Below the pieces are notes generated by a model, which was given only the letters and a program-made list of their open reading frames with translations, ran no database searches and was not told the DNA's origin. The translations under genes and the position numbers were made by a program. Shown piece after piece: positions 3,076-19,293 of a DNA stretch of 64,000 nt (position 1 is the first letter of the stretch; the number at the start of each line of letters is the position of its first letter). Source of the stretch: an uncultured Clostridia bacterium (lineage in GTDB: Bacteria > Bacillota > Clostridia > TANB77 > UBA1234); NCBI GenBank assembly GCA_944393265.1, contig CALXZO010000009.1, positions 1,103 through 65,102 of the forward strand, in the 5' to 3' direction.

Positions 3076-3090
3076 TAAAGATGAAATTTA

Positions 3091-3185
3091 GACATGGGGA
3101 CGAAGTTTTTGTCTATACCTTTTAAAAGCGATCAGCCTATGGCAATAGGCTAAAGTAGTATAGACAAAAACTTCGTCCCCATGTC
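3091..3185. repeat. palindromic intergenic repeat copy P1 (~95 bp)
   Basis: gacatggggacgaagtttttgtctatac ... gcctatggcaataggc ... gtatagacaaaaacttcgtccccatgtc: near-perfect 28-bp inverted arms around a conserved caatagg core. Confidence 0.65.
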
Positions 3186-3288
3186 TACAGAATTATTTGC
3201 TTTTTGTCTTGAAACTATTGAATTTTGGGGAAATTTATTTTATAATGAGCGTGTTATGTAAAGAAGAAAAGTGGGAGGAGAAAACGTA

Positions 3289-8925: not shown

Positions 8926-9450
8926 ATGAAGTATATTTTTGTATCGGATATACATGGAAGTGTTGATACTCTAGAAACGGTTTTAACTATTTTTAGAGAA
9001 GAAAACGCTGATAAATTAGTAATTCTAGGAGACACAGCTTCTTTTACAGATGCAAATGCAAATGATATTATAGCAACAACACTAAATAATATGATAAGAA
9101 AAGTAGAAGTAATACGAGGAAATTGTGACACATTAAGCTTTGAAGAAAAAATATTATTTGAGATGTATGATTATGATAATTTATATATAGCCAATAAATT
9201 TGTAACTATCACGCATGGACACTTATATAACTATAATAACTTACCAAGCAGTTGTGGAGATATTTTTATCCAAGGGCATACTCATATTCCATTACTTATT
9301 AAGCAAGAAAATAGAATATTAGCAAATCCCGGCTCTATTTCAAGGCCTAGAGGAAGTAATATAAAATGTTATATTATGATTGATGATAATGGAATATATT
9401 TAAAAACGGTTAATGGAAAGGTTGTTAAAAGGCTAGAATTTGTTAAGTAA
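8926..9450 (+). CDS. metallophosphoesterase, YfcE/MJ0936 family phosphodiesterase
   Basis: DIHG ... GDT ... GNCD ... GHTH motif series of calcineurin-like phosphoesterases; 174 aa. Confidence 0.8.
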   Translation: MKYIFVSDIHGSVDTLETVLTIFREENADKLVILGDTASFTDANANDIIATTLNNMIRKVEVIRGNCDTLSFEEKILFEMYDYDNLYIANKFVTITHGHLYNYNNLPSSCGDIFIQGHTHIPLLIKQENRILANPGSISRPRGSNIKCYIMIDDNGIYLKTVNGKVVKRLEFVK

Positions 9451-9541
9451 TATTTTAGAATAGAAAGAAGTATATGTACAGAACTGGTTGACATAAAGCC
9501 AATAATGCGATAAAATAACAAATGAACTATATTATAATGAG

Positions 9542-9823
9542 GTGAATGAAATGAGTCCACTGTCTATTGTAGAGAATGGATTAGAATGGATATTTAATAC
9601 AATTCCAGTAGATATATGGATATGGGGAAATGTTGCAGTAATGGCAATATTGTGGTTTGCAAAGGAAAAAATCACGTTTGCCTTAACTGTAGAGCTCATG
9701 TTTGTTCTTTTGTGGGGGACATGCAAGTTTGCTTGTTTTGTCCTACCACTTTGGCTAGAGTGGGTGGTAACGGTAGTGGTCGTTATCACGCTAATACGAC
9801 TATTTCGCCGGGGAGGTGCTTGA
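9542..9823 (+). CDS. hypothetical small membrane protein (93 aa)
   Basis: two hydrophobic segments; overlaps a second Cys-rich ORF (9616-9867) in another frame; ends with an in-frame CGG codon; weak. Confidence 0.3.
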   Translation: MNEMSPLSIVENGLEWIFNTIPVDIWIWGNVAVMAILWFAKEKITFALTVELMFVLLWGTCKFACFVLPLWLEWVVTVVVVITLIRLFRRGGA

Positions 9824-9832
9824 AAAAGCATC

Positions 9833-9990
9833 TCTTTTTATTGTATAGGAAAGTAATCAAAAAATAACAAATTATGTTACCAAATGCTTCCCGTATGAGA
9901 CAACAAAAATTTCATATTTAAAGTCGAGCTTTGCTCGACTTTAAAGAATCAAAAATCTCTGATTTTTTAGATTTTCATTTTTGTTCTTTA
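9833..9990. repeat. ~155-bp structured dispersed repeat, copy A (three consecutive hairpins)
   Basis: near-identical to 12001-12154, 17729-17882 and 32057-32212; internal palindromes ggaaagta...tactttcc, aagtcgagctttgctcgactt, gaaaatcaaaaatc...gattttttagattttc. Confidence 0.8.
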
Positions 9991-10164
9991 ATAGAAAATC
10001 ATCATTGTGAGAAGTGAATATTTGAAAAAACTTGAATTATGCAAAATTAAGTGATATAATATATACGTAGTTTATTGTAAGTGGAGGTGTATTGCAACTG
10101 ATTAGTATGCAGATGTGAACTGGGACTAGAACGGAATGATAGAAAAGTGAAAGGGGAAACACAC

Positions 10165-10731
10165 ATGAAACAGAAGAGAGCGGATTTCATCCGAATGATC
10201 CGCATCGAAAAGCTCTCGATAGAGGAGATTGCCAAGGTTTTGGGCGTCACTCCTTTGACCGTGCGGCGAAACATCCGCAGTAGCTACATCCGAAAGGGAT
10301 GGGCAGAGACGCTACTGGCCGAGGCTAAGGCGAACGCCAAAGCCAAGAAAGTTGAGAAGACTGAGTTGGTGTACTTGCTCGACACCTCTTATCTCCTTAA
10401 CAGGCCTGAGAGTTGTCTGAAGTTGGATGGACGACTGCTCATGCCACGTTTCTGCAGAAACGAGGTGGAACATCTCATTTCAGGAGGAACGGTCGAAAGA
10501 CCGGACCAGGTGAAGCAAGTCCTCGAGATGGCAGATCTCATCTATATTGAGGATTTGCCCCGGGTGGAACTGCCACCCGAAATGGGATTTTTAAAGAGCA
10601 GGAACATCATGTTCCTAAGGTACGCAAGTGCTTTGAGCGCTAGTACCGATAACCTTCGGATCTGCGTGAAGAGCTACGAGCTGCAGAAGCTCTTAGAACT
10701 AAGCCGGATTCACGACGTCGCCTCTCGTTGA
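10165..10731 (+). CDS. GC-rich foreign ORF: HTH plus PIN-like domain protein (putative nuclease/toxin-like)
   Basis: ~50% GC against ~29% background; AAAGGGGA RBS before the ATG at 10165 (ORF track starts 10147); N-terminal HTH (LSIEEIAKVLGVTPLTVRR) and a PIN-like LLDTSYLL ... RNEVEHL segment; contains 4 in-frame CGG Arg codons. Confidence 0.5.
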   Translation: MKQKRADFIRMIRIEKLSIEEIAKVLGVTPLTVRRNIRSSYIRKGWAETLLAEAKANAKAKKVEKTELVYLLDTSYLLNRPESCLKLDGRLLMPRFCRNEVEHLISGGTVERPDQVKQVLEMADLIYIEDLPRVELPPEMGFLKSRNIMFLRYASALSASTDNLRICVKSYELQKLLELSRIHDVASR

Positions 10732-10746
10732 GAGGCGACTTTTTTT
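10717..10746 (+). terminator. rho-independent terminator of the GC-rich ORF
   Basis: gtcgcctctcgttgagaggcgac hairpin overlapping the stop codon, followed by ttttttt. Confidence 0.7.
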
Positions 10747-10870
10747 GTGCAACAATGAAATTTTTAGTGGACGTTCCAAAAGGTTCCACATTAGGATTTT
10801 CCTACCTTGCATATTATTAATATTTGTAATATAATAAATTGGCTAAATTGTTAAAAAGGTGGATGTAAAT

Positions 10871-11935
10871 ATGTTTGATAAATTAGAAAATGTTGAGAAA
10901 AGGTATGAAGAGCTAAATCAAAAAATTAGTGATCCAGATATTATAAGTAACCAAAGTGAGTGGCAAAAACTAATGAAGGAGCATGCGGATTTACAAGATA
11001 TAGTTGAAAAATATAGAGAATATAAAAATACATTAAACTCAATTGAAGAGCTAAAGGAGATGCTAAACGACAGAGAAATGCATGATTTAGCTCAAATGGA
11101 GTTGGACGAGAATAGAGAAAAATTACCTAAAATTGAAGAAGAATTGAAACTTTTATTAGTGCCAAAAGATCCGAACGATGAAAAAAATGTTATTATAGAA
11201 ATAAGAGGAGGCGCAGGCGGAGAAGAGTCTTCATTATTTGCGGGCGATTTATTTAGAATGTACAGTATGTATGCTGAAAAGAAACGTTGGAAATTAGAAG
11301 TACTTAATTTAAATGAAACAGAGCTTGGTGGAATCAAAGAAGTAACTTTTATGATTTCAGGAAAAGGTGCGTATAGTAGATTAAAATTTGAAAGTGGAGT
11401 ACATAGAGTTCAAAGGGTGCCAGATACTGAATCTAGCGGAAGAATTCATACGTCAACTGCTACGGTTGCAGTGCTTCCGGAGGTTAGTGATGTTGAAATT
11501 GAAATTAATCCGACAGACTTAAAAGTTGATACATTTAGGTCAAGTGGCGCTGGTGGTCAACATATTAATAAGACCGAATCAGCAATTAGAATTACACATA
11601 TTCCAACTGGAGTCGTTGTTGAATGTCAAACAGAACGTTCGCAGATTCAAAATAGAGAAACAGCCATGTCGATGCTTCGTTCGAAATTGTATGAAGCAGA
11701 GCTTCAAAAACAATCTGCAGAACAAGCGGAAAAGCGTAAAAGCCAAGTTGGTAGCGGTGATAGATCTGAGAAAATAAGGACATATAATTTCCCGCAAGGC
11801 CGTATAACAGATCATAGAATTGGACTTAGCATGTATCAGGTAGATAATTTTTTAAATGGTGATATTGACGAAATGATAGACGCCTTAAATGCTGCGGATA
11901 GAGCGGCTAAGCTTGCAGCAGATGAAGAAAAATAA
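10871..11935 (+). CDS. prfA: peptide chain release factor 1
   Basis: MFDKLE N-terminus, GGQ motif ([24 protein letters not shown]), RF1-type length. Confidence 0.95.
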
Positions 11936-12000
11936 AACTACCAAAGAATAGGAGAAAATATTTTAAATTGTGCGGTTCCAAGGTTAGCTAGGAATCGCTT

Positions 12001-12154
12001 TTTTATTTCATAGGAAAGTAATCAAAAATTAACGAATTATGTTACTAAATACTTTCCGTATGAAACAACAAAAATTCCATATTTAAAGTCTAGCTTTGCT
12101 CGACATATGAAAATCAAAAATCTTTGATTTTTTAGATTTTCATTTTTGTTCTTG
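12001..12154. repeat. ~155-bp structured dispersed repeat, copy B
   Basis: ttttatttcataggaaagtaatcaaaaattaacgaattatgttactaaatactttccgtatgaaacaac...gattttttagattttcatttttgttc. Confidence 0.8.
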
Positions 12155-12279
12155 AGGGGTTGTCGCTTGAATTGAATCTTATATATGTTCTTTTAGTATG
12201 CAGATGGAGCATTAATAGCGGATAAGAAAATCATTGATTTTATAAGGAAAAACCAAGTTAAATTTTGTATCCGCAAGCG

Positions 12280-12308
12280 TTGACAAAATTATTTAAAAAT
12301 GATAAAAT
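12280..12308 (+). promoter_or_regulatory. sigma-A-type promoter of the ribosomal protein/EF operon
   Basis: TTGACA, 17-nt spacer, TAAAAT, ~90 nt upstream of the L7Ae-like gene. Confidence 0.6.
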
Positions 12309-12399
12309 CTAGTCTGCTATTATATGGATATTGGCTTGAGTGCTTGTATCCGTAAGATAACAAAAGACTTATTGCTCATAAAGGAGATTGATAGGATAA

Positions 12400-12612
12400 A
12401 TGAAATATGTCGGGGTTAAGCAAGTATTAAGAGCTGCTCAAAACGATGAGGTAAAAGTTGTGTATATTGCTAAGGATGCAGAAAAGAGAGTTACAGAAGA
12501 ATTAATTAAGGTATGTACAGAAAAGAATATTGATATAAACTATATTGAAACTATGGAAGAGCTAGGCAAACTTGCAGGTGTTGATGTTAAGTCATCGGCA
12601 GCGGCAGAATAG
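12400..12612 (+). CDS. ribosomal L7Ae-family protein (YbxF-like)
   Basis: 70-aa ORF at the conserved position just upstream of rpsL; L7Ae-like VYIAKDAE ... GKLAGV signature. Confidence 0.8.
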   Translation: MKYVGVKQVLRAAQNDEVKVVYIAKDAEKRVTEELIKVCTEKNIDINYIETMEELGKLAGVDVKSSAAAE

Positions 12613-12731
12613 ATATCTAGACTTGAATACACGGATTATGGGGGATAGAGTCTAAATTAACTAAAAGCTGATTTCAAGCGCAGTTAGCGTTGAAATATAT
12701 ATTTAAATTACAAGGAGGTGAACGAAAAGAA

Positions 12732-13145
12732 ATGCCAACAATTAATCAATTAGTAAAAAAAGGAAGAAAGTCAAAGACATCTAAATCAAAGGCTCCTGCT
12801 TTGCAAAAGGGTTATAACTCGAAAACAAAGAGAATAACGAATGCATCAAGCCCACAAAAAAGAGGTGTTTGCACAGTCGTAAAGACTACAACTCCTAAGA
12901 AGCCAAACTCAGCTTTAAGAAAAGTTGCTAGGGTTAGACTTACGAACACTCAAGAAGTAACTGCTTATATTCCTGGTATCGGTCACAACTTACAAGAACA
13001 TAGTGTTGTTCTAATAAGGGGTGGAAGAGTAAAGGACCTTCCTGGTGTTAGATATCATATCATCAGAGGAACTTTAGATACGGCTGGTGTAAAAGACAGA
13101 AAACAAGGCAGATCACGTTATGGAGCAAAGAAACCTAAGAATTAA
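12732..13145 (+). CDS. rpsL: 30S ribosomal protein S12
   Basis: [14 protein letters not shown]-terminus; [11 protein letters not shown] motif. Confidence 0.95.
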
Positions 13146-13262
13146 TTAGGAAAATTTAGAGTGCTTATTATATAGATTGTAATAAAGCACTTGCTGGGGC
13201 AACCCAGAGTACCTTGGCATACGGTATTTTATGTATGCTAGAATTACAAGGAGGGAAGAATA

Positions 13263-13733
13263 GTGCCAAGAAAAGGTTATATAGCAAAAAGAGAAATTTT
13301 ACCAGATCCTTTATATAACAGTAAGTTAGTTACTAAACTTATTAATAATGTTATGGAAAGCGGTAAAAAGCAACTAGCACAAAGAATTGTTTATGGCGCA
13401 TTTGAAATTGTTGCAGAAAAAACAGGAAAAGAACCGTTAGCAGCATTTGATGAAGCTATGAATAATATAATGCCTGTACTTGAAGTAAAAGCTAGAAGAG
13501 TCGGAGGAGCAACTTACCAAGTTCCAATGGAAATTAGAGCTGAGAGAAGACAAGCGTTAGGATTAAGATGGCTAGTAAGATACGCTAGAGAGCGTAATGA
13601 AAAAACAATGAAAGAGAAATTGGCTGGCGAGATAATGGATGCTATAAACAGCATGGGCGGAGCTTTCAAGAAGAAAGAAGATACGCACAGAATGGCTGAA
13701 GCAAATAAAGCTTTTGCACATTATCGCTGGTAA
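13263..13733 (+). CDS. rpsG: 30S ribosomal protein S7
   Basis: GTG start after a GGAGGG RBS; PRKG ... [20 protein letters not shown]7 signature. Confidence 0.95.
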
Positions 13734-13779
13734 TAAATGATTTCACAATAGATAACTAATAAAGATAGGAGGAAAACGA

Positions 13780-15867
13780 GTGGCTACCGAGAGAAAATAT
13801 TCACTTGAAAAAACAAGAAATATAGGTATAATGGCTCACATAGATGCTGGTAAAACAACAACTACGGAGCGTATACTATTTTATACAGGTAAAACACATA
13901 AAATAGGTGAAGTTCACGAAGGTGCAGCTACCATGGACTGGATGGTTCAAGAACAAGAAAGAGGTATCACAATTACTTCTGCTGCAACAACTTGTTTTTG
14001 GAAGGATCATAGAATAAATATTATAGACACTCCAGGGCACGTTGACTTTACGGTTGAAGTTGAGCGTTCGCTTAGGGTTCTAGACGGTTCAGTTACAGTA
14101 TTTTGCGCTAAAGGTGGAGTTCAACCACAATCAGAAACTGTTTGGAGACAAGCAGACAAATACAAAGTTCCAAGAATGTGCTATGTTAATAAAATGGATA
14201 CAACAGGTGCAGACTTTTTTGGCTGTGTAAAGCAAATGAGAGAAAGACTTCATGCAAATGCTATTCCAATTCAATTACCTATTGGAGCCGAGGATAGTTT
14301 TGCAGGTGTTGTTGACCTAATTAAAATGAAAGCTATCATTCATAAAGATGATTTAGGAAAACAATTTGAAGAAACAGAAATCCCAGAGGATTTGAAAGAG
14401 ATGGCTGAAAAATATCGTCAAGAGATGATTGAAGCTGCTGCAGAACAAGACGAAGAATTAATGATGAAATATCTTGAGGGGGAAGAGCTTACAGAAGATG
14501 AGATAAAGAAAGGATTAAGAGTAGGAACAATTAATGTTAAGCTTACACCTGTTTGTTGTGGTTCTTCGTATAAAAATAAAGGAGTTCAAGAGTTGTTAGA
14601 TGCAATAATTGCATTTATGCCATCACCAGTTGATATTCCAGCGATTAAGGGAATCGATCCAAATACTGATACAGAGGTGGAGAGAAAAGCATCTGATAGC
14701 GAGCCATTTTCAGCTTTAGCATTTAAGATTGCAACAGATCCATTTGTTGGAAAACTTTGTTTCTTTAGGGTTTACTCTGGAACGTTAGATGCAGGAACTA
14801 CTGTATTAAATACAAGTAAGGGAAAGAAAGAGAGAATAGGAAGAATTCTACAGATGCATGCAAATCATAGAGAAGATATCGACAAAGTATTTGCTGGTGA
14901 TATTGCTGCAGCTGTCGGATTAAAGGATGTAGCAACTGGAGATACTCTTTGTGTTGAGAACGCCCCGGTTATACTAGAATCAATGGAATTCCCAGAACCG
15001 GTTATTTCGGTTGCAATTGAGCCAAAAACAAAGGCGGACCAAGAAAAGATGGGTATTGCTTTATCGAAATTAGCTGAAGAGGACCCAACATTTAAAACAT
15101 ACACGAACCAAGAGACTGGACAAACAATTATCGCTGGTATGGGTGAGCTACACCTAGATATCATTGTTGATAGATTGAAGAGAGAGTTTAAGGTTGAATG
15201 TAATGTTGGTGCACCACAAGTTGCATATAAAGAGACGATTAGGAATAAAGTAAAAGCGCAAGGTAAATTTATTAGACAATCTGGTGGTAGAGGACAATAT
15301 GGTGATGTATGGTTCGAGCTAGAGCCATTAGAGCCAGGCTCAGGAATTCAATTCGAAAGCAAAATCGTTGGTGGTGTTGTTCCTAGAGAATACATTAAGC
15401 CAACTGAAGAAGGATTTAGAGAAGCAACTAACGTTGGTATTCTTGCTGGTTATCCAGTAGTTGATGTTAAAGCAACATTAGTCGATGGATCTTACCACGA
15501 TGTTGACTCGTCAGAAATGGCATTTAAGATTGCAGCTTCTATGGCATTCAAAGAGTGCTGCAAATTAGCAAAACCAGTACTACTAGAGCCTATTATGAGA
15601 GTAGAAATAGTAGTTCCAGAAGAATACATGGGAGATGTTATTGGAGACGTTAACTCTAGAAGAGGTAGACTAGAGGGAATGGATGACCAAGGTGGAATGA
15701 AGATAATAAGAGCGTTTATTCCACTTTCTGAGATGTTTGGTTATGCTACAGACCTTCGTTCAAGAACACAAGGTAGAGGAACATATTCAATGGAACCAAG
15801 TCACAATGAAGAAGTTCCAAAATCAATTATGGAATCTATTACAGCTCAAAGAAATAAGAAAGACTAG
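13780..15867 (+). CDS. fusA: elongation factor G
   Basis: GTG start; [21 protein letters not shown]-domain, 695 aa. Confidence 0.95.
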
Positions 15868-16022
15868 GCAAGAACACTTAAACTGATAACTTGTAAAAAG
15901 TGTTGCCAAAAAGAAAAAAGTTATATAGAATATATATTTGAAATAAGGGCGATAGACTCTTTGCAAATTTATTTTAGATATCATTATTGAAAATATAAAA
16001 AAATAAAAGGAGGAAAAATATT

Positions 16023-17225
16023 ATGGCAAAAGAAAAGTTTGAAAGAAATAAGCCACATGTCAATATTGGTACAATCGGACATGTTGACCATGGTAAAACT
16101 ACTTTAACAGCAGCTATTACAAAAGTATTATCTTTAAAAGGAGAAGCAGAATTTAAAGCTTACGATCAAATCGATGGAGCACCAGAAGAAAAAGCAAGAG
16201 GAATCACAATTAATACAGCACACGTTGAATATCAAACAGAGGCTAGACACTATGCACACGTTGACTGCCCAGGACACGCAGACTACGTTAAGAACATGAT
16301 TACAGGTGCTGCTCAAATGGATGGAGCAATCCTTGTTGTTTCAGCAGCAGATGGCCCAATGCCACAAACAAGAGAGCATATCCTACTTGCAAGACAAGTT
16401 GGAGTTCCTTATATCGTAGTATTCTTAAATAAATGCGATATGGTTGACGATCCAGAACTATTAGAACTAGTTGAAATGGAAGTTAGAGAATTATTAAATA
16501 AATATGAATTCCCTGGAGATACAACTCCAATCATTAGAGGCTCAGGATTAAAAGTTCTTGAATCTACATCAACAGATCCAAATGCACCAGAATATGAGTG
16601 CATCAGAGAATTAATGAAAACTGTTGATGAGTATATCCCTACTCCTCAAAGACCAGTTGATCAACCATTCCTAATGCCAGTTGAGGACGTTTTCACAATT
16701 ACAGGACGTGGAACAGTTGCAACAGGTAGAGTTGAGAGAGGTATTGTAAAGCTTTCTGACGAAGTTGAGATCGTTGGTATAGCAAAAGAAACAAAGAAGA
16801 CAGTTGTAACAGGTGTTGAAATGTTTAGAAAATTGCTAGACCAAGCAGAGGCAGGAGATAATATCGGTGTACTTTTAAGAGGTATCCAAAGAAATGAAAT
16901 TGAGAGAGGTCAAGTTCTTGCAAAACCAGGAACAATACGTCCACATACTTCATTCAAAGGAGAGGTATACGTATTGACTAAAGAAGAGGGTGGAAGACAC
17001 AAGCCATTCTTTAGTAATTATAGACCACAATTCTATTTCAGAACAACAGACGTTACAGGAGTTATAACATTACCTGCTGGAACAGAAATGGTTATGCCAG
17101 GTGATAACGTAACTATGGATATAGAATTAATCACACCAATAGCTATTGAAAAGGGACTTAAGTTCGCTATTCGTGAAGGCGGAAAAACAGTTGGTGCGGG
17201 TATCGTTACAGAAATTAAAGAGTAA
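16023..17225 (+). CDS. tuf: elongation factor Tu
   Basis: [33 protein letters not shown]; 400 aa. Confidence 0.95.
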
Positions 17226-17258
17226 TTTTATCATACAGATTATAATAAGAACCTCCAA

Positions 17259-17281
17259 GACTAGAAACTATCTAGTTTTTG
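17259..17281 (+). terminator. rho-independent terminator after tuf
   Basis: ctagaaactatctag hairpin followed by ttttt. Confidence 0.55.
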
Positions 17282-17289
17282 GGGGTTTT

Positions 17290-17335
17290 ATTTTTATTTC
17301 ATACGGAAAGTATTTAATAACATAATACGCTAATT
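17290..17335. repeat. partial collapsed copy (E) of the ~155-bp repeat
   Basis: tttatttcatacggaaagtatttaataacataat matches the left arm and inner inverted segment of the first hairpin of the family. Confidence 0.4.
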
Positions 17336-17362
17336 GGTAAGTATCTTCTTATGAAATAAAAA

Positions 17363-17383
17363 ACTCCCGAAAAATTCGGGAGT
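17363..17383 (-). terminator. hairpin terminator serving the minus-strand GC-rich ORF
   Basis: actcccgaaaaattcgggagt perfect stem; the U-run is on the minus strand (aaaaaa at 17357-17362 on plus). Confidence 0.55.
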
Positions 17384-17401
17384 AAAGAGCCATTTCAACG
17401 G

Positions 17402-17629
17402 TTAGTCGGGCGGGTGAATGTACGAGATCCAGCCCCTATGGAACAAGAACACATTCATACCGTCCCGCTGCAACTCGCTGGCAGAAACAATCCTCGTTTC
17501 ACAGGCATGCCGCGAAAACGGAGAGTTGCAGTTTGCGCAAAACTGCACGTCGTTACCAGTACCTTCTAGGCACAAAGCTTTGCACCTAGAACAGACTCTG
17601 AGCATCACGTTCGGTTCAGGACTATTCAT
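17402..17629 (-). CDS. GC-rich foreign ORF: small Cys-rich zinc-ribbon-like protein (75 aa)
   Basis: ~52% GC; strong AAAGGAGGG RBS 7 nt before the ATG; CxxC ... CxxC spacing (CSRCKALC ... FCANCNS); own terminator; 2 in-frame CGG codons. Confidence 0.45.
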   Translation of the reverse strand: MNSPEPNVMLRVCSRCKALCLEGTGNDVQFCANCNSPFSRHACETRIVSASELQRDGMNVFLFHRGWISYIHPPD

Positions 17630-17728
17630 TGAGGTCCCTCCTTTTTTGTTTGTTTAGCATTAACATTATATCACGACATTTGTATATAAGCAAGCAAAAA
17701 GATAGGCAAGAATTAAGGATAATGCTGT

Positions 17729-17882
17729 TTTTTATTTCATAGGAAAGTAATCAAAAATTAATGAATTATGTTACCAAATACTTCCCGTATGAAACAACAA
17801 AAATTTCATATTTAAAGTCGAGCTTTGCTCGACATATGAAAATCAAAAATCTTTGATTTTTTAGATTTTCATTTTTGTTCTC
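17729..17882. repeat. ~155-bp structured dispersed repeat, copy C
   Basis: near-identical to copies A, B and D. Confidence 0.8.
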
Positions 17883-18117
17883 TTTTAATTTGCATTTTAT
17901 GTTCTGATGTAATATAATGCCATGGTATAGTAATATATATTAGAAAAATATAATAATAATGAGATAAAGCAGTTTAGATTCTTTAATTTTAATTATTTTT
18001 TATGTCTAATAAAAATAGTAAATGGTTGAAGGATTTGAGGTACTGTTTAATATAATAAAAATTTAAAAAGGAGGGAGTTTCGTATAGTGTTTATAGTGCA
18101 TTATACGGGTAATTTTA

Positions 18118-19293
18118 ATGAAGATTTTAGTTGATGCTATGGGAGGAGATAAAAGCCCAGATGAGATCATCAAAGGTTGTGTTGATGCGATTGATGTTCT
18201 TGAGTCCGAGATAATTTTGATTGGTAATGAGGAAATTATTAATCAAAAAGTAAAGGAATTTTATGGAAAAGAAAAATTATCAGAAATTAATTCAAAGTTA
18301 TCGATAAGAAATGCTAATACTGTAATTCAAAACGAAGAAGCTCCAACAATTGCAATAAAGACAAAGAAAGATTCGTCTATGGTTGTTGGATTTAATATGC
18401 TAAAAAATGGAGAAGGCGATGCGTTTGTTTCAGCTGGCAGCACAGGTGCCTTTATGACAGGTGGATTGCTTCTTGTAGGAAGAATAAAAGGTATTGACCG
18501 TCCAGCGCTTTGTCCAATTTTGCCAACATATAACGGCAAAGGATTCATGCTAATTGATTGTGGGGCAAATACAAATTGCAGACCTATTAATTTATTTCAG
18601 TTTGCTACAATGGGAAAAATATATATGAACAAAGTTATGCATATTGATGATCCAGTGGTTGGATTACTTAACATAGGAACTGAAGAAGGCAAAGGAAGTT
18701 TGCTAACAAAAGAGGCATTTACGCAATTCGCAGAAACAGATGAGTTTAATTTTTATGGTAATATTGAAGGTAGAGAAATATTTAATGGAGATGTTAATGT
18801 TGTCGTTACCGATGGATTTACTGGAAACGTTACATTAAAAACAATTGAAGGAATGGGTTCTATGGTTAGCAAAATGCTAAAAGAAGAATTGTACGCTAAT
18901 CCATGGAGAAAGTTCTTAGCATTACTACTAATGCCAGCCTTGAAAAGATTTAAGAAAAGAATGGATTATAGTGAATATGGCGGGGCACTATTACTTGGAA
19001 TTAAGAAACCTTTAATAAAATGCCACGGAACAGCCAATGCTAAAATAGTAAAATATACATTAATTCAAGCTGAAAACTTTGCTAAAAATAGAGCGGTGGA
19101 GACGATTGAAGAAGAATTTGTAAAGCTATCGAAGTTGCAAAAAGATTCTGAAATAGAAGAAAATGTGGTAAACAATAATTATAGTAAGGAAAATCTATCT
19201 CAAAACAAAACTGAAATTCCAATAGAAGACACAAAACTAAAAAATGCGAAAGAACATGTGAAGGGTAATAGAAAAAGCAAGAAGAAAAAATGA
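18118..19293 (+). CDS. plsX: phosphate acyltransferase PlsX, with an unusual ~60-aa Lys/Glu-rich C-terminal extension
   Basis: MKILVDAMGGDKSPDEII ... PlsX signature; 391 aa against the usual ~330. Confidence 0.9.
   Translation: MKILVDAMGGDKSPDEIIKGCVDAIDVLESEIILIGNEEIINQKVKEFYGKEKLSEINSKLSIRNANTVIQNEEAPTIAIKTKKDSSMVVGFNMLKNGEGDAFVSAGSTGAFMTGGLLLVGRIKGIDRPALCPILPTYNGKGFMLIDCGANTNCRPINLFQFATMGKIYMNKVMHIDDPVVGLLNIGTEEGKGSLLTKEAFTQFAETDEFNFYGNIEGREIFNGDVNVVVTDGFTGNVTLKTIEGMGSMVSKMLKEELYANPWRKFLALLLMPALKRFKKRMDYSEYGGALLLGIKKPLIKCHGTANAKIVKYTLIQAENFAKNRAVETIEEEFVKLSKLQKDSEIEENVVNNNYSKENLSQNKTEIPIEDTKLKNAKEHVKGNRKSKKKK

Follow-up and report, generated by a model that had tools for sequence, protein, structure and literature searches.

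What kind of sequence is a short segment, about 154 nt long, that lies just behind prfA in the DNA of an uncultured Clostridia bacterium and recurs in other gaps between genes? The question raised by this locus is whether the segment acts as an RNA, belongs to a mobile-element-like family of DNA repeats, or serves some other purpose. It was followed through a 64,000-nucleotide stretch of one contig, here called the window. This stretch also contains a Spo0A gene and a T-box, and its host was read as a spore-forming, low-GC member of the Clostridia. A direct-repeat search of the whole window assigned the segment to one 154-nt family with four full copies, all on the + strand. Together with a decayed partial copy they are located as follows:

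9834/9835-9987, + strand: full copy 1 (repeat search, alignment, BLAST)
11999-12152, + strand: full copy 2, to which the first-pass annotation refers (repeat search, alignment)
17728-17881, + strand: full copy 3 (repeat search, alignment)
about 32056-32211, + strand: full copy 4 (repeat search, BLAST)
17288-17365, - strand: solo module A, that is hairpin 1 alone, decayed (83% identical)

The count of four full copies and one partial copy, as given in the first-pass annotation, is upheld by the repeat search, by BLAST and by comparison with shuffled sequences (four occurrences of the 19-nt core AAGTCGAGCTTTGCTCGAC on the + strand, 0.00 expected from 100 shuffles). Full copies range from 153 to 156 bp, and the GC content of the element is 24%, compared with 32% for the window. 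Identity of more than 90% had been reported for all copies, but it does not hold as a uniform figure: ungapped identity to the 11999 copy spans 86-97%, being 89% for copy 1, 97% for copy 3 and 86% for copy 4, and gapped BLAST alignments give 89.5%, 96.8% and 96.1% in the same order. The partial copy had been described as a collapsed fragment at 17290-17335; it is real, but it covers 17288-17365 on the minus strand and represents hairpin 1 only, equivalent to ~76 nt at the element's start, and its left arm is degraded. When copies were aligned together with 55 nt on each side, similarity began sharply at a T-run (TTTTTTATTTCATAGG...) and ended at ...CATTTTTGTTCT, and flanks proved to be unrelated, with no alignment between them. 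A second and unrelated repeat family was observed in the window as three intergenic copies on the + strand (~3087-3187, 22822-22913 and 28337-28437), each a palindrome of ~100 bp with ~30-bp arms (TAGACATGGGGACGAAGTTTTTGTCTATAC / GTATAGACAAAAACTTCGTCCCCATGTCTA) and a central hairpin (GCCTATGGCAATAGGC).

The order of substructures on the + strand is a T5-7 run, hairpin 1, AACAAAAAT, hairpin 2, hairpin 3 and ATTTTTGTT-CT, the element starting with TTTTTTATTTCATAGGAAAG at its left end and finishing with GATTTTCATTTTTGTTCT at its right end. In copy 2 the parts have the following positions:

12006-12065, + strand: hairpin 1, the core of module A (TTTCATAGGAAAGTA ... TACTTTCCGTATGAAA)
12066-12074 with 12142-12150, + strand: 9-bp complement formed by AACAAAAAT and ATTTTTGTT (inverted-repeat search, RNAalifold)
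12086-12104, + strand: hairpin 2, with 7-bp GC-rich arms and a TTT loop
12107-12143, + strand: hairpin 3, an AT-rich stem of ~14 bp, (T)GAAAATCAAAAATC / GATTTTTTAGATTTTC(A), followed by ATTTTTGTTCT

The three palindromes noted previously are all present as described, although a fourth feature had been overlooked. AACAAAAAT and ATTTTTGTT complement each other perfectly and do not vary among the nine sequence variants examined, and for this reason RNAalifold draws the element as hairpin 1 and, after it, a closed domain with hairpins 2 and 3 inside. Two modules can be distinguished. Module A is a long palindrome of ~80 bp which includes the T-run and the A-run (hairpin 1 together with the 5' T-run and AACAAAAA), and it is the module found alone at 17288-17365. 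Module B comprises ~85 bp, with hairpins 2 and 3 placed within the 9-bp complement. Each module has inverted ends of its own, module A as a nearly full palindrome and module B through its perfect 9 bp.

Hairpin 2 with its flanks (CCATATTTAAAGTCNAGCTTTGCTCGACATAT) makes up the best-conserved block between species; a 32-nt block around it is identical in three species, whereas hairpins 1 and 3 carry deletions. Its sequence elsewhere than in copy 2 is GTCGAGC-TTT-GCTCGAC, with CATAT/ATATG on either side. In copy 2 one arm has a G-to-T mismatch (GTCTAGC), and in copy 1 the stem is lengthened to 13 bp (TTTAAAGTCGAGC/GCTCGACTTTAAA). Hairpin 3, which can be written as GAAAATCAAAAATC-TTT-GATTTTTTAGATTTTC, includes only two G-C pairs and has one extra A in copy 4. 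In some strains (L005, 11125-11285; L009, 5094-5203) copy 2 shows TTTCAT in place of TTCCAT and, linked to it, GTCGAGC in place of GTCTAGC, two changes that give it the sequence of the other copies. Such a pattern can come either from gene conversion between copies or from mixing of repeat reads by the assembler.

As a whole, the element lacks terminal inverted repeats (TIRs): the inverted-repeat search of copy 2 found no pair that joins 11999-12012 with 12140-12153, and the left end of this copy pairs with internal segments only. No target-site duplication (TSD) was detected in the flank alignments, where no direct repeat is common to the left and right flank of any copy. All copies begin with, or are preceded by, T5-7 followed by A, and TTTAT is located at the left edge in six out of seven. 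Open frames within the element are limited to 31-38 codons, mostly without a start codon, and they are interrupted or frameshifted in other copies, in accord with the earlier statement that no ORF lies inside. As no frame survives from copy to copy, an ORF is not conserved and the element is not coding; a coding reading was rejected for the same reason.

Each site was then compared among metagenome contigs of the same species, recognised by an identical or near-identical prfA or by an identical 114-aa protein. More than 10 contigs were available per site, every copy was found at the same place, and spacing between copies was identical on contigs that carry several of them. No empty site was seen at any of the four loci in all same-species contigs examined. 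Since every contig at every site carries its copy, this comparison does not show recent mobility. Assemblies often end within the repeat (L009, L011, L012, L030, L031 and L032). In two further cases a known left flank is joined to a new right flank, which leads into the mnmA region in L008 and into another gene start in L033, and because of these new flanks we count at least two further genomic copies, giving a species total of at least six full copies plus the solo module. The L033 copy has the loop of hairpin 2 flipped from TTT to AAA with its arms kept, an event of the DNA-palindrome type. The start of the window is matched gene for gene by assembly GCA_949289745.1 (contig CASEPC010000012.1), and the 10 kb upstream of the window contain no further copies. 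L021 and L022 place a TnpV gene ~1.3 kb ahead of the first position of the window.

In the three sister species inspected (prfA 91-92% identical), no copy was found in the 12-21 kb around prfA available per locus. The tuf-plsX spacer of one of them (L013) is 136 bp long and consists of a terminator and an alignable plsX promoter, in comparison with 893 bp in the window, where the spacer accommodates solo module A, a GC-rich islet and copy 3. The distance to the sister species is too large for exact insertion boundaries to be fixed. The gap between prfA and the L7Ae-rpsL-rpsG-fusA-tuf operon (11935-12400 in the window) varies among these species as well. It holds a Gp49/HTH_3 pair in L013, by our reading a HigB/HigA-like toxin-antitoxin pair, and ~6 kb of other genes in L018, while L016 has a different neighbour. 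The order prfA, rpsL operon, plsX-acpP-rnc is itself unusual for Firmicutes.

Outside this group, a pattern scan through one genome per GTDB species disclosed two genomes with one variant copy each, at unrelated loci. In L001 (uncultured Clostridia bacterium, 27% GC) the copy is inserted between convergent genes and its hairpin 3 is cut to a perfect 10-bp stem. In L002 (uncultured Eubacteriales bacterium) the copy follows an 876-aa ORF, and its hairpin 1 is 21 nt shorter and still pairs. Phage and plasmid collections gave no match to the copy in BLASTN, JGI metagenomes none with two different patterns, and IMG/VR none in a pattern scan; no candidate copies emerged from the protein database through spurious ORF translations of the repeat, and a literature search with the element core sequences found no paper. 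The view that this is not a named element is consistent with the lack of a match in the resources searched (Rfam, phage/plasmid, IMG/VR, JGI, literature).

Seven left ends could be compared (the four window copies, the copies in L001 and L002, and solo module A), and in five of them the T-run stands directly after a strong stem-loop (-13 to -21 kcal/mol) as its U-tract. The T5 run of copy 1 is the U-tract of the terminator stem 9810-9834, which belongs to a small membrane-protein ORF (9552-9823, 90 aa). Copy 2 is located 64 nt past the prfA stop, and its T6 run follows the stem GCGGTTCC...GGAATCGC. Solo module A is wedged between the tuf terminator (+ strand) and the terminator of a minus-strand islet, and gives U-tracts to both through its T-run and A-run. 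Copy 3 lies between the promoter side of this minus-strand GC-rich islet and the plsX promoter, with no terminator stem upstream, and copy 4 is 13 nt past the stop of a 114-aa membrane ORF, the last gene of a radical-SAM/SPASM cluster. The presence of the T-run in copies 3 and 4 without a convincing stem upstream suggests that the run is part of the element. The region preceding copy 4 (30201-32043, + strand) holds an 88-aa ORF, a radical-SAM gene, a SPASM-domain gene and the 114-aa membrane ORF, with 16-17% GC in 30201-30600; it looks like a small RiPP-type cluster, and the copy comes directly after it.

All full copies with a known left flank (n = 6: four in the window, L001 and L002) have the same strand as the nearest upstream gene, and promoter-like sites for the next gene occur just past the 3' end of the element. 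For plsX, the promoter was scored by the scan as TTTGCA-N18-TATAAT at 17889-17918 and by reading as TTGCAT-N17-TATAAT, 10 nt after copy 3. Placement is biased to gene 3' ends, including gaps between convergent genes (solo module A and the L001 copy). That copies always come after a gene is correct for three of the four full copies; the one at 17728 is not directly after tuf but upstream of plsX.

Although the element closes with a hairpin followed by T-rich sequence, no terminator starts inside any of the three copies covered by a scan of 9400-18200 in which at least three G-C pairs were needed. The sole overlap detected there is with the terminator of the upstream gene (9810-9837), the T-run of which enters copy 1. 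The proposal that the element is more than a simple terminator is upheld. A promoter scan found no convincing promoter inside it, only a weak 9-of-12 promoter-like match on the minus strand, and with strong terminators just upstream an independent sRNA gene is disfavoured. A 13-mer shared by the downstream regions of copies 1 and 2 (TAGTATGCAGATG) was judged to be due to chance; its spacing differs, and by our own estimate 64 kb should contain ~30 such pairs of 13-mers by chance.

GC-rich islets are another feature of the window. The islet in the tuf-plsX spacer (17360-17650, minus strand, ~290 nt) has 52% GC in a 32%-GC genome. By reading, it is equipped with a promoter (TTGCTT-N17-TATAAT), an RBS (GGAGG) and a terminator at 17363-17383, and it contains a 75-codon Cys-rich ORF with a zinc-ribbon-like CxxC...CxxC arrangement. 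The 75-aa sequence found no homologue, not even itself, in a protein database of 5.8 billion sequences, and the islet has no Pfam and no Rfam match. It folds better than its shuffles (z = -3.6), and could be a small foreign protein gene or a structured RNA. The islet between copy 1 and prfA (10147-10731, + strand, 46-52% GC) encodes a protein of 188-194 aa that matches Sigma70_r4_2/HTH weakly, and a strong terminator is located at 10717-10739. All same-species contigs carry this islet, but it is not beside prfA in the three sister species. The third islet (28742-29323, minus strand, 46-48% GC) encodes an HD-domain protein and adjoins a tRNA gene (29469-29539). In the same-species contig L027, DNA upstream of this islet is replaced by a VanY/two-component cluster, which may be a true difference between strains or a join made by the assembler.

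The islet at 17360-17650 is bracketed by inverted copies of module A, at 17288-17365 (-) and 17728-17807 (+), and the entire block is missing from the tuf-plsX spacer of the sister species. This arrangement raises the question of whether the repeats act as cassette boundaries or recombination sites which import GC-rich foreign genes, either as a composite element with an inverted module-A pair or in an attC-like manner. Pairs of MITEs are known to mobilise the DNA between them (PMC3184786). Copy 1 lies ~160 bp upstream of another 52%-GC gene, but the third islet has no copy nearby, and the genes next to copies 2 and 4 are ordinary AT-rich ones, of housekeeping or radical-SAM type, with promoters of their own. 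All full copies point in the same direction, as attC sites do; however, attC core sites have the form RYYYAAC ... GTTRRRY and an integron integrase nearby, whereas the 3' end of this element, GTTCT(N), misfits GTTRRRY and no integrase was present among the window proteins scanned. Considering also that no integrase or recombinase was found in the window and that the protein database holds no relative of the islet ORF, we regard an import function of this type as highly improbable.

A functional structured RNA would be a different answer. The element could then be a 3'-UTR/read-through element or a small RNA with a three-way architecture, serving as a backup terminator, insulator or mRNA-stability element for the upstream gene. 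The consensus structure obtained with RNAalifold is consistent with this: its four helices have 97% of cells paired over nine distinct variants, against 41-52% when partners are slid, and internal deletions in the L001 and L002 copies leave the hairpins intact. Thirty of the 45 pairs never vary. Four pairs are kept through compensatory changes on both sides, but all four come from the single divergent copy L002, and the RNAalifold covariation term is slightly unfavourable (+0.92). Single sequences fold better than their shuffles on both strands (z = -2.5 for +, -5.4 for -). By our reading of the pair tables, six one-sided changes produce G-U pairs on the + strand and five on the - strand, so that they carry no strand signal. 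Rfam, applied to the whole window at gathering thresholds, reported only the T-box and tRNA, and a search with the copy itself at E <= 10 gave best matches with E >= 0.86, far below threshold.

Position of the element bears on the same explanation. Co-orientation of full copies with the nearest upstream gene and the location of ATTTTTGTT directly after hairpin 3 would suit an RNA transcribed from that gene. On the other hand, as copies usually begin after a strong terminator, little transcription is expected to reach them. The internal promoter-like match is weak and on the minus strand, the scan that needed at least three G-C pairs located no terminator starting inside, Rfam offers no family even at E = 10, and a sister species does without the element in the orthologous tuf-plsX spacer. 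For these reasons we consider the structured RNA unlikely, though it deserves to be kept in mind. Hairpins are kept while the family diverges, which fits a role for them, and their upkeep would equally fit RNA structure, recognition of single-stranded DNA, or arm-to-arm correction in DNA palindromes; it does not discriminate among the three.

Conservation of hairpin 2 and its flanks, including the 32 nt identical in three species, can also be seen from the side of DNA-binding proteins. Sites for IHF and gyrase occur in BIME/RIP elements, and the perfect 7-3-7 palindrome GTCGAGC-TTT-GCTCGAC might be a putative operator of a dimeric HTH or nucleoid-associated protein, the copies forming an array of binding sites in which the rest is carrier sequence. 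Retention of both arms despite the loop flip in L033 and several small HTH genes nearby would agree with this, although one arm is mismatched in two copies (c11999 and L001), no regulator could be linked to the palindrome, and a gap between terminator and promoter is not operator-like. An operator array is, in our opinion, improbable.

Comparison with described repeat families places the element outside every named one, because the features that define MITEs, bcr1, REP, IS200/IS605, terminators/SPRITE, attC and Rfam families were not found in it; nevertheless, it behaves like the looser MITE-like/BOX-like group. Resemblance to bcr1 of the Bacillus cereus group (Okstad 2004, Klevan 2007, via PMC3184786) includes length (~155 bp), non-coding nature, intergenic location in a low-GC Firmicute, independent stem-loops, and a distribution that is not conserved between related genomes. 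Each ~155-bp bcr1 copy is flanked by 5-bp direct repeats (PMC3184786), while in this element the left-edge TTTAT has no matching direct repeat at the right edge. In addition, the host lineage is another, and transcription and compensatory changes are documented for bcr1; the comparison covers described features of the two. The left-edge TTTAT is reminiscent of the flank reported for bcr1.

Similarity to BOX of Streptococcus pneumoniae (boxA-boxB-boxC) is of a more structural kind. Both are modular, intergenic and non-coding, built of several palindromic sub-units that occur in partial combinations, and both have no transposase of their own and appear to have spread in a past burst that gave way to a static phase (PMC3184786). 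They differ in sequence family and host, and while the number of boxB units is variable in BOX, only "A alone" and "A+B" are found here. The mobiliser proposed for BOX is ISStso1 (PMC3184786), whereas for this element no partner was found in the 64-kb window. Intrinsic terminators and SPRITE-like repeats are distinguished from it by the AT-rich hairpins and the absence of a G+C-rich stem with a T-run inside; the element follows genuine terminators and does not mimic one.

Canonical MITEs (Correia/NEMIS, RUP, ERIC) share with the element a length below 200 bp, lack of coding capacity, multiple intergenic copies, long stem-loops and unrelated flanks, but the element as a whole lacks both TIRs and a TSD, and the window yielded no parent IS with matching ends. 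The initial alternative of a structured RNA or a MITE-like element can accordingly be narrowed: a dispersed, non-coding, mobile-element-like sequence stands and a canonical MITE does not, a structured RNA being unlikely but conceivable. Absence of TIRs and of target duplication, together with hairpins near both ends, is a property of IS200/IS605 and REP/RAYT, as is strictly oriented placement beside a short conserved sequence (here perhaps the T-run plus AT) with insertion next to other hairpins. In IS200/IS605, one TnpA (Y1 transposase) normally binds similar hairpins at both ends, while hairpin 1 (GGAAAGTA...) and hairpin 3 (GAAAATCAAAAATC...) of this element are unrelated in sequence, and the 64-kb window showed no Y1 transposase. 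REPs are GC-rich sequences of 20-40 bp with a GTAG or CGTC tag (PMC3733652); this element has 154 bp and 24% GC, and by reading no GTAG/CGTC tag.

We therefore favour, as the probable explanation, a non-autonomous, modular, palindrome-rich dispersed DNA repeat of the BOX/RUP/SPRITE/bcr1/REP/MITE-like kind, which spread in one lineage and is now fixed and probably dormant. The class of palindromic and MITE-like repeats is well documented (PMC3184786), and here the sequence family is new and the kind of element ordinary. Near-identical copies with unrelated flanks, their absence at and near the corresponding sites of sister species, single variants at unrelated loci elsewhere, and short-read assemblies that break or mis-join at copies all support a mobile reading. 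The decayed solo module A, the loop flip in L033 and the second palindromic family of the window also speak for a dispersed repeat. Against it stand the lack of TIRs and of a TSD, a window that holds no mobilising gene, and the failure to find an empty site within the species. Identity of the 32-nt hairpin-2 block across three species and the four compensatory pairs count against it as well, and could reflect selection for function rather than selfish spread.

According to this explanation, the repeat would have spread within one lineage of uncultured low-GC Clostridia, reached two further species by transfer or descent, and then become fixed and probably dormant. Copies would settle in neutral spacers that separate one gene's terminator from the promoter of the following gene, and with the 5' T-run usually placed directly against the upstream terminator stem, termination would be preserved. 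Co-orientation with the upstream gene may exist because only insertions that restore the U-tract are tolerated, or because a T-run after a hairpin is the target. From the lack of TIRs and TSDs we infer past spread by a hairpin-recognising enzyme acting in trans, of the sort used by IS200/IS605 or REP/RAYT, or by recombination, a cut-and-paste DDE transposase being less likely. No transposase or other mobilising gene was found in the 64-kb window, where the products of the minus-strand ORFs checked for a transposase include an HtrA-like protease and an Ig/PKD protein. Genes for a TraG/TrwB-like coupling protein and a TrbL-like protein at the window's right end (60894-63848, + strand) suggest the edge of a conjugative element.

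A more specific form of mobility is conceivable, in which the repeat is a terminator-homing, hairpin-recognised unit with the T-run as its target, and paired module A carries cargo, so that the islet at 17360-17650 would have been brought in as a composite element. We give this proposal little credence. If true, terminator homing would represent a transposition system in Clostridia without TIRs and TSDs, driven by an unknown enzyme, and only a true terminator-homing mechanism or cargo-carrying role would make the family of wider interest.

For genomics of this gut- or host-associated Clostridia lineage, the repeat family breaks and mis-joins short-read assemblies, and contigs end in its copies or are chimeric across them. 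The repeat marks sites of foreign GC-rich genes and of rearrangements, and it could be used as a strain or lineage marker. To the documented modular palindromic repeats, it adds one example that has settled between terminators and promoters.
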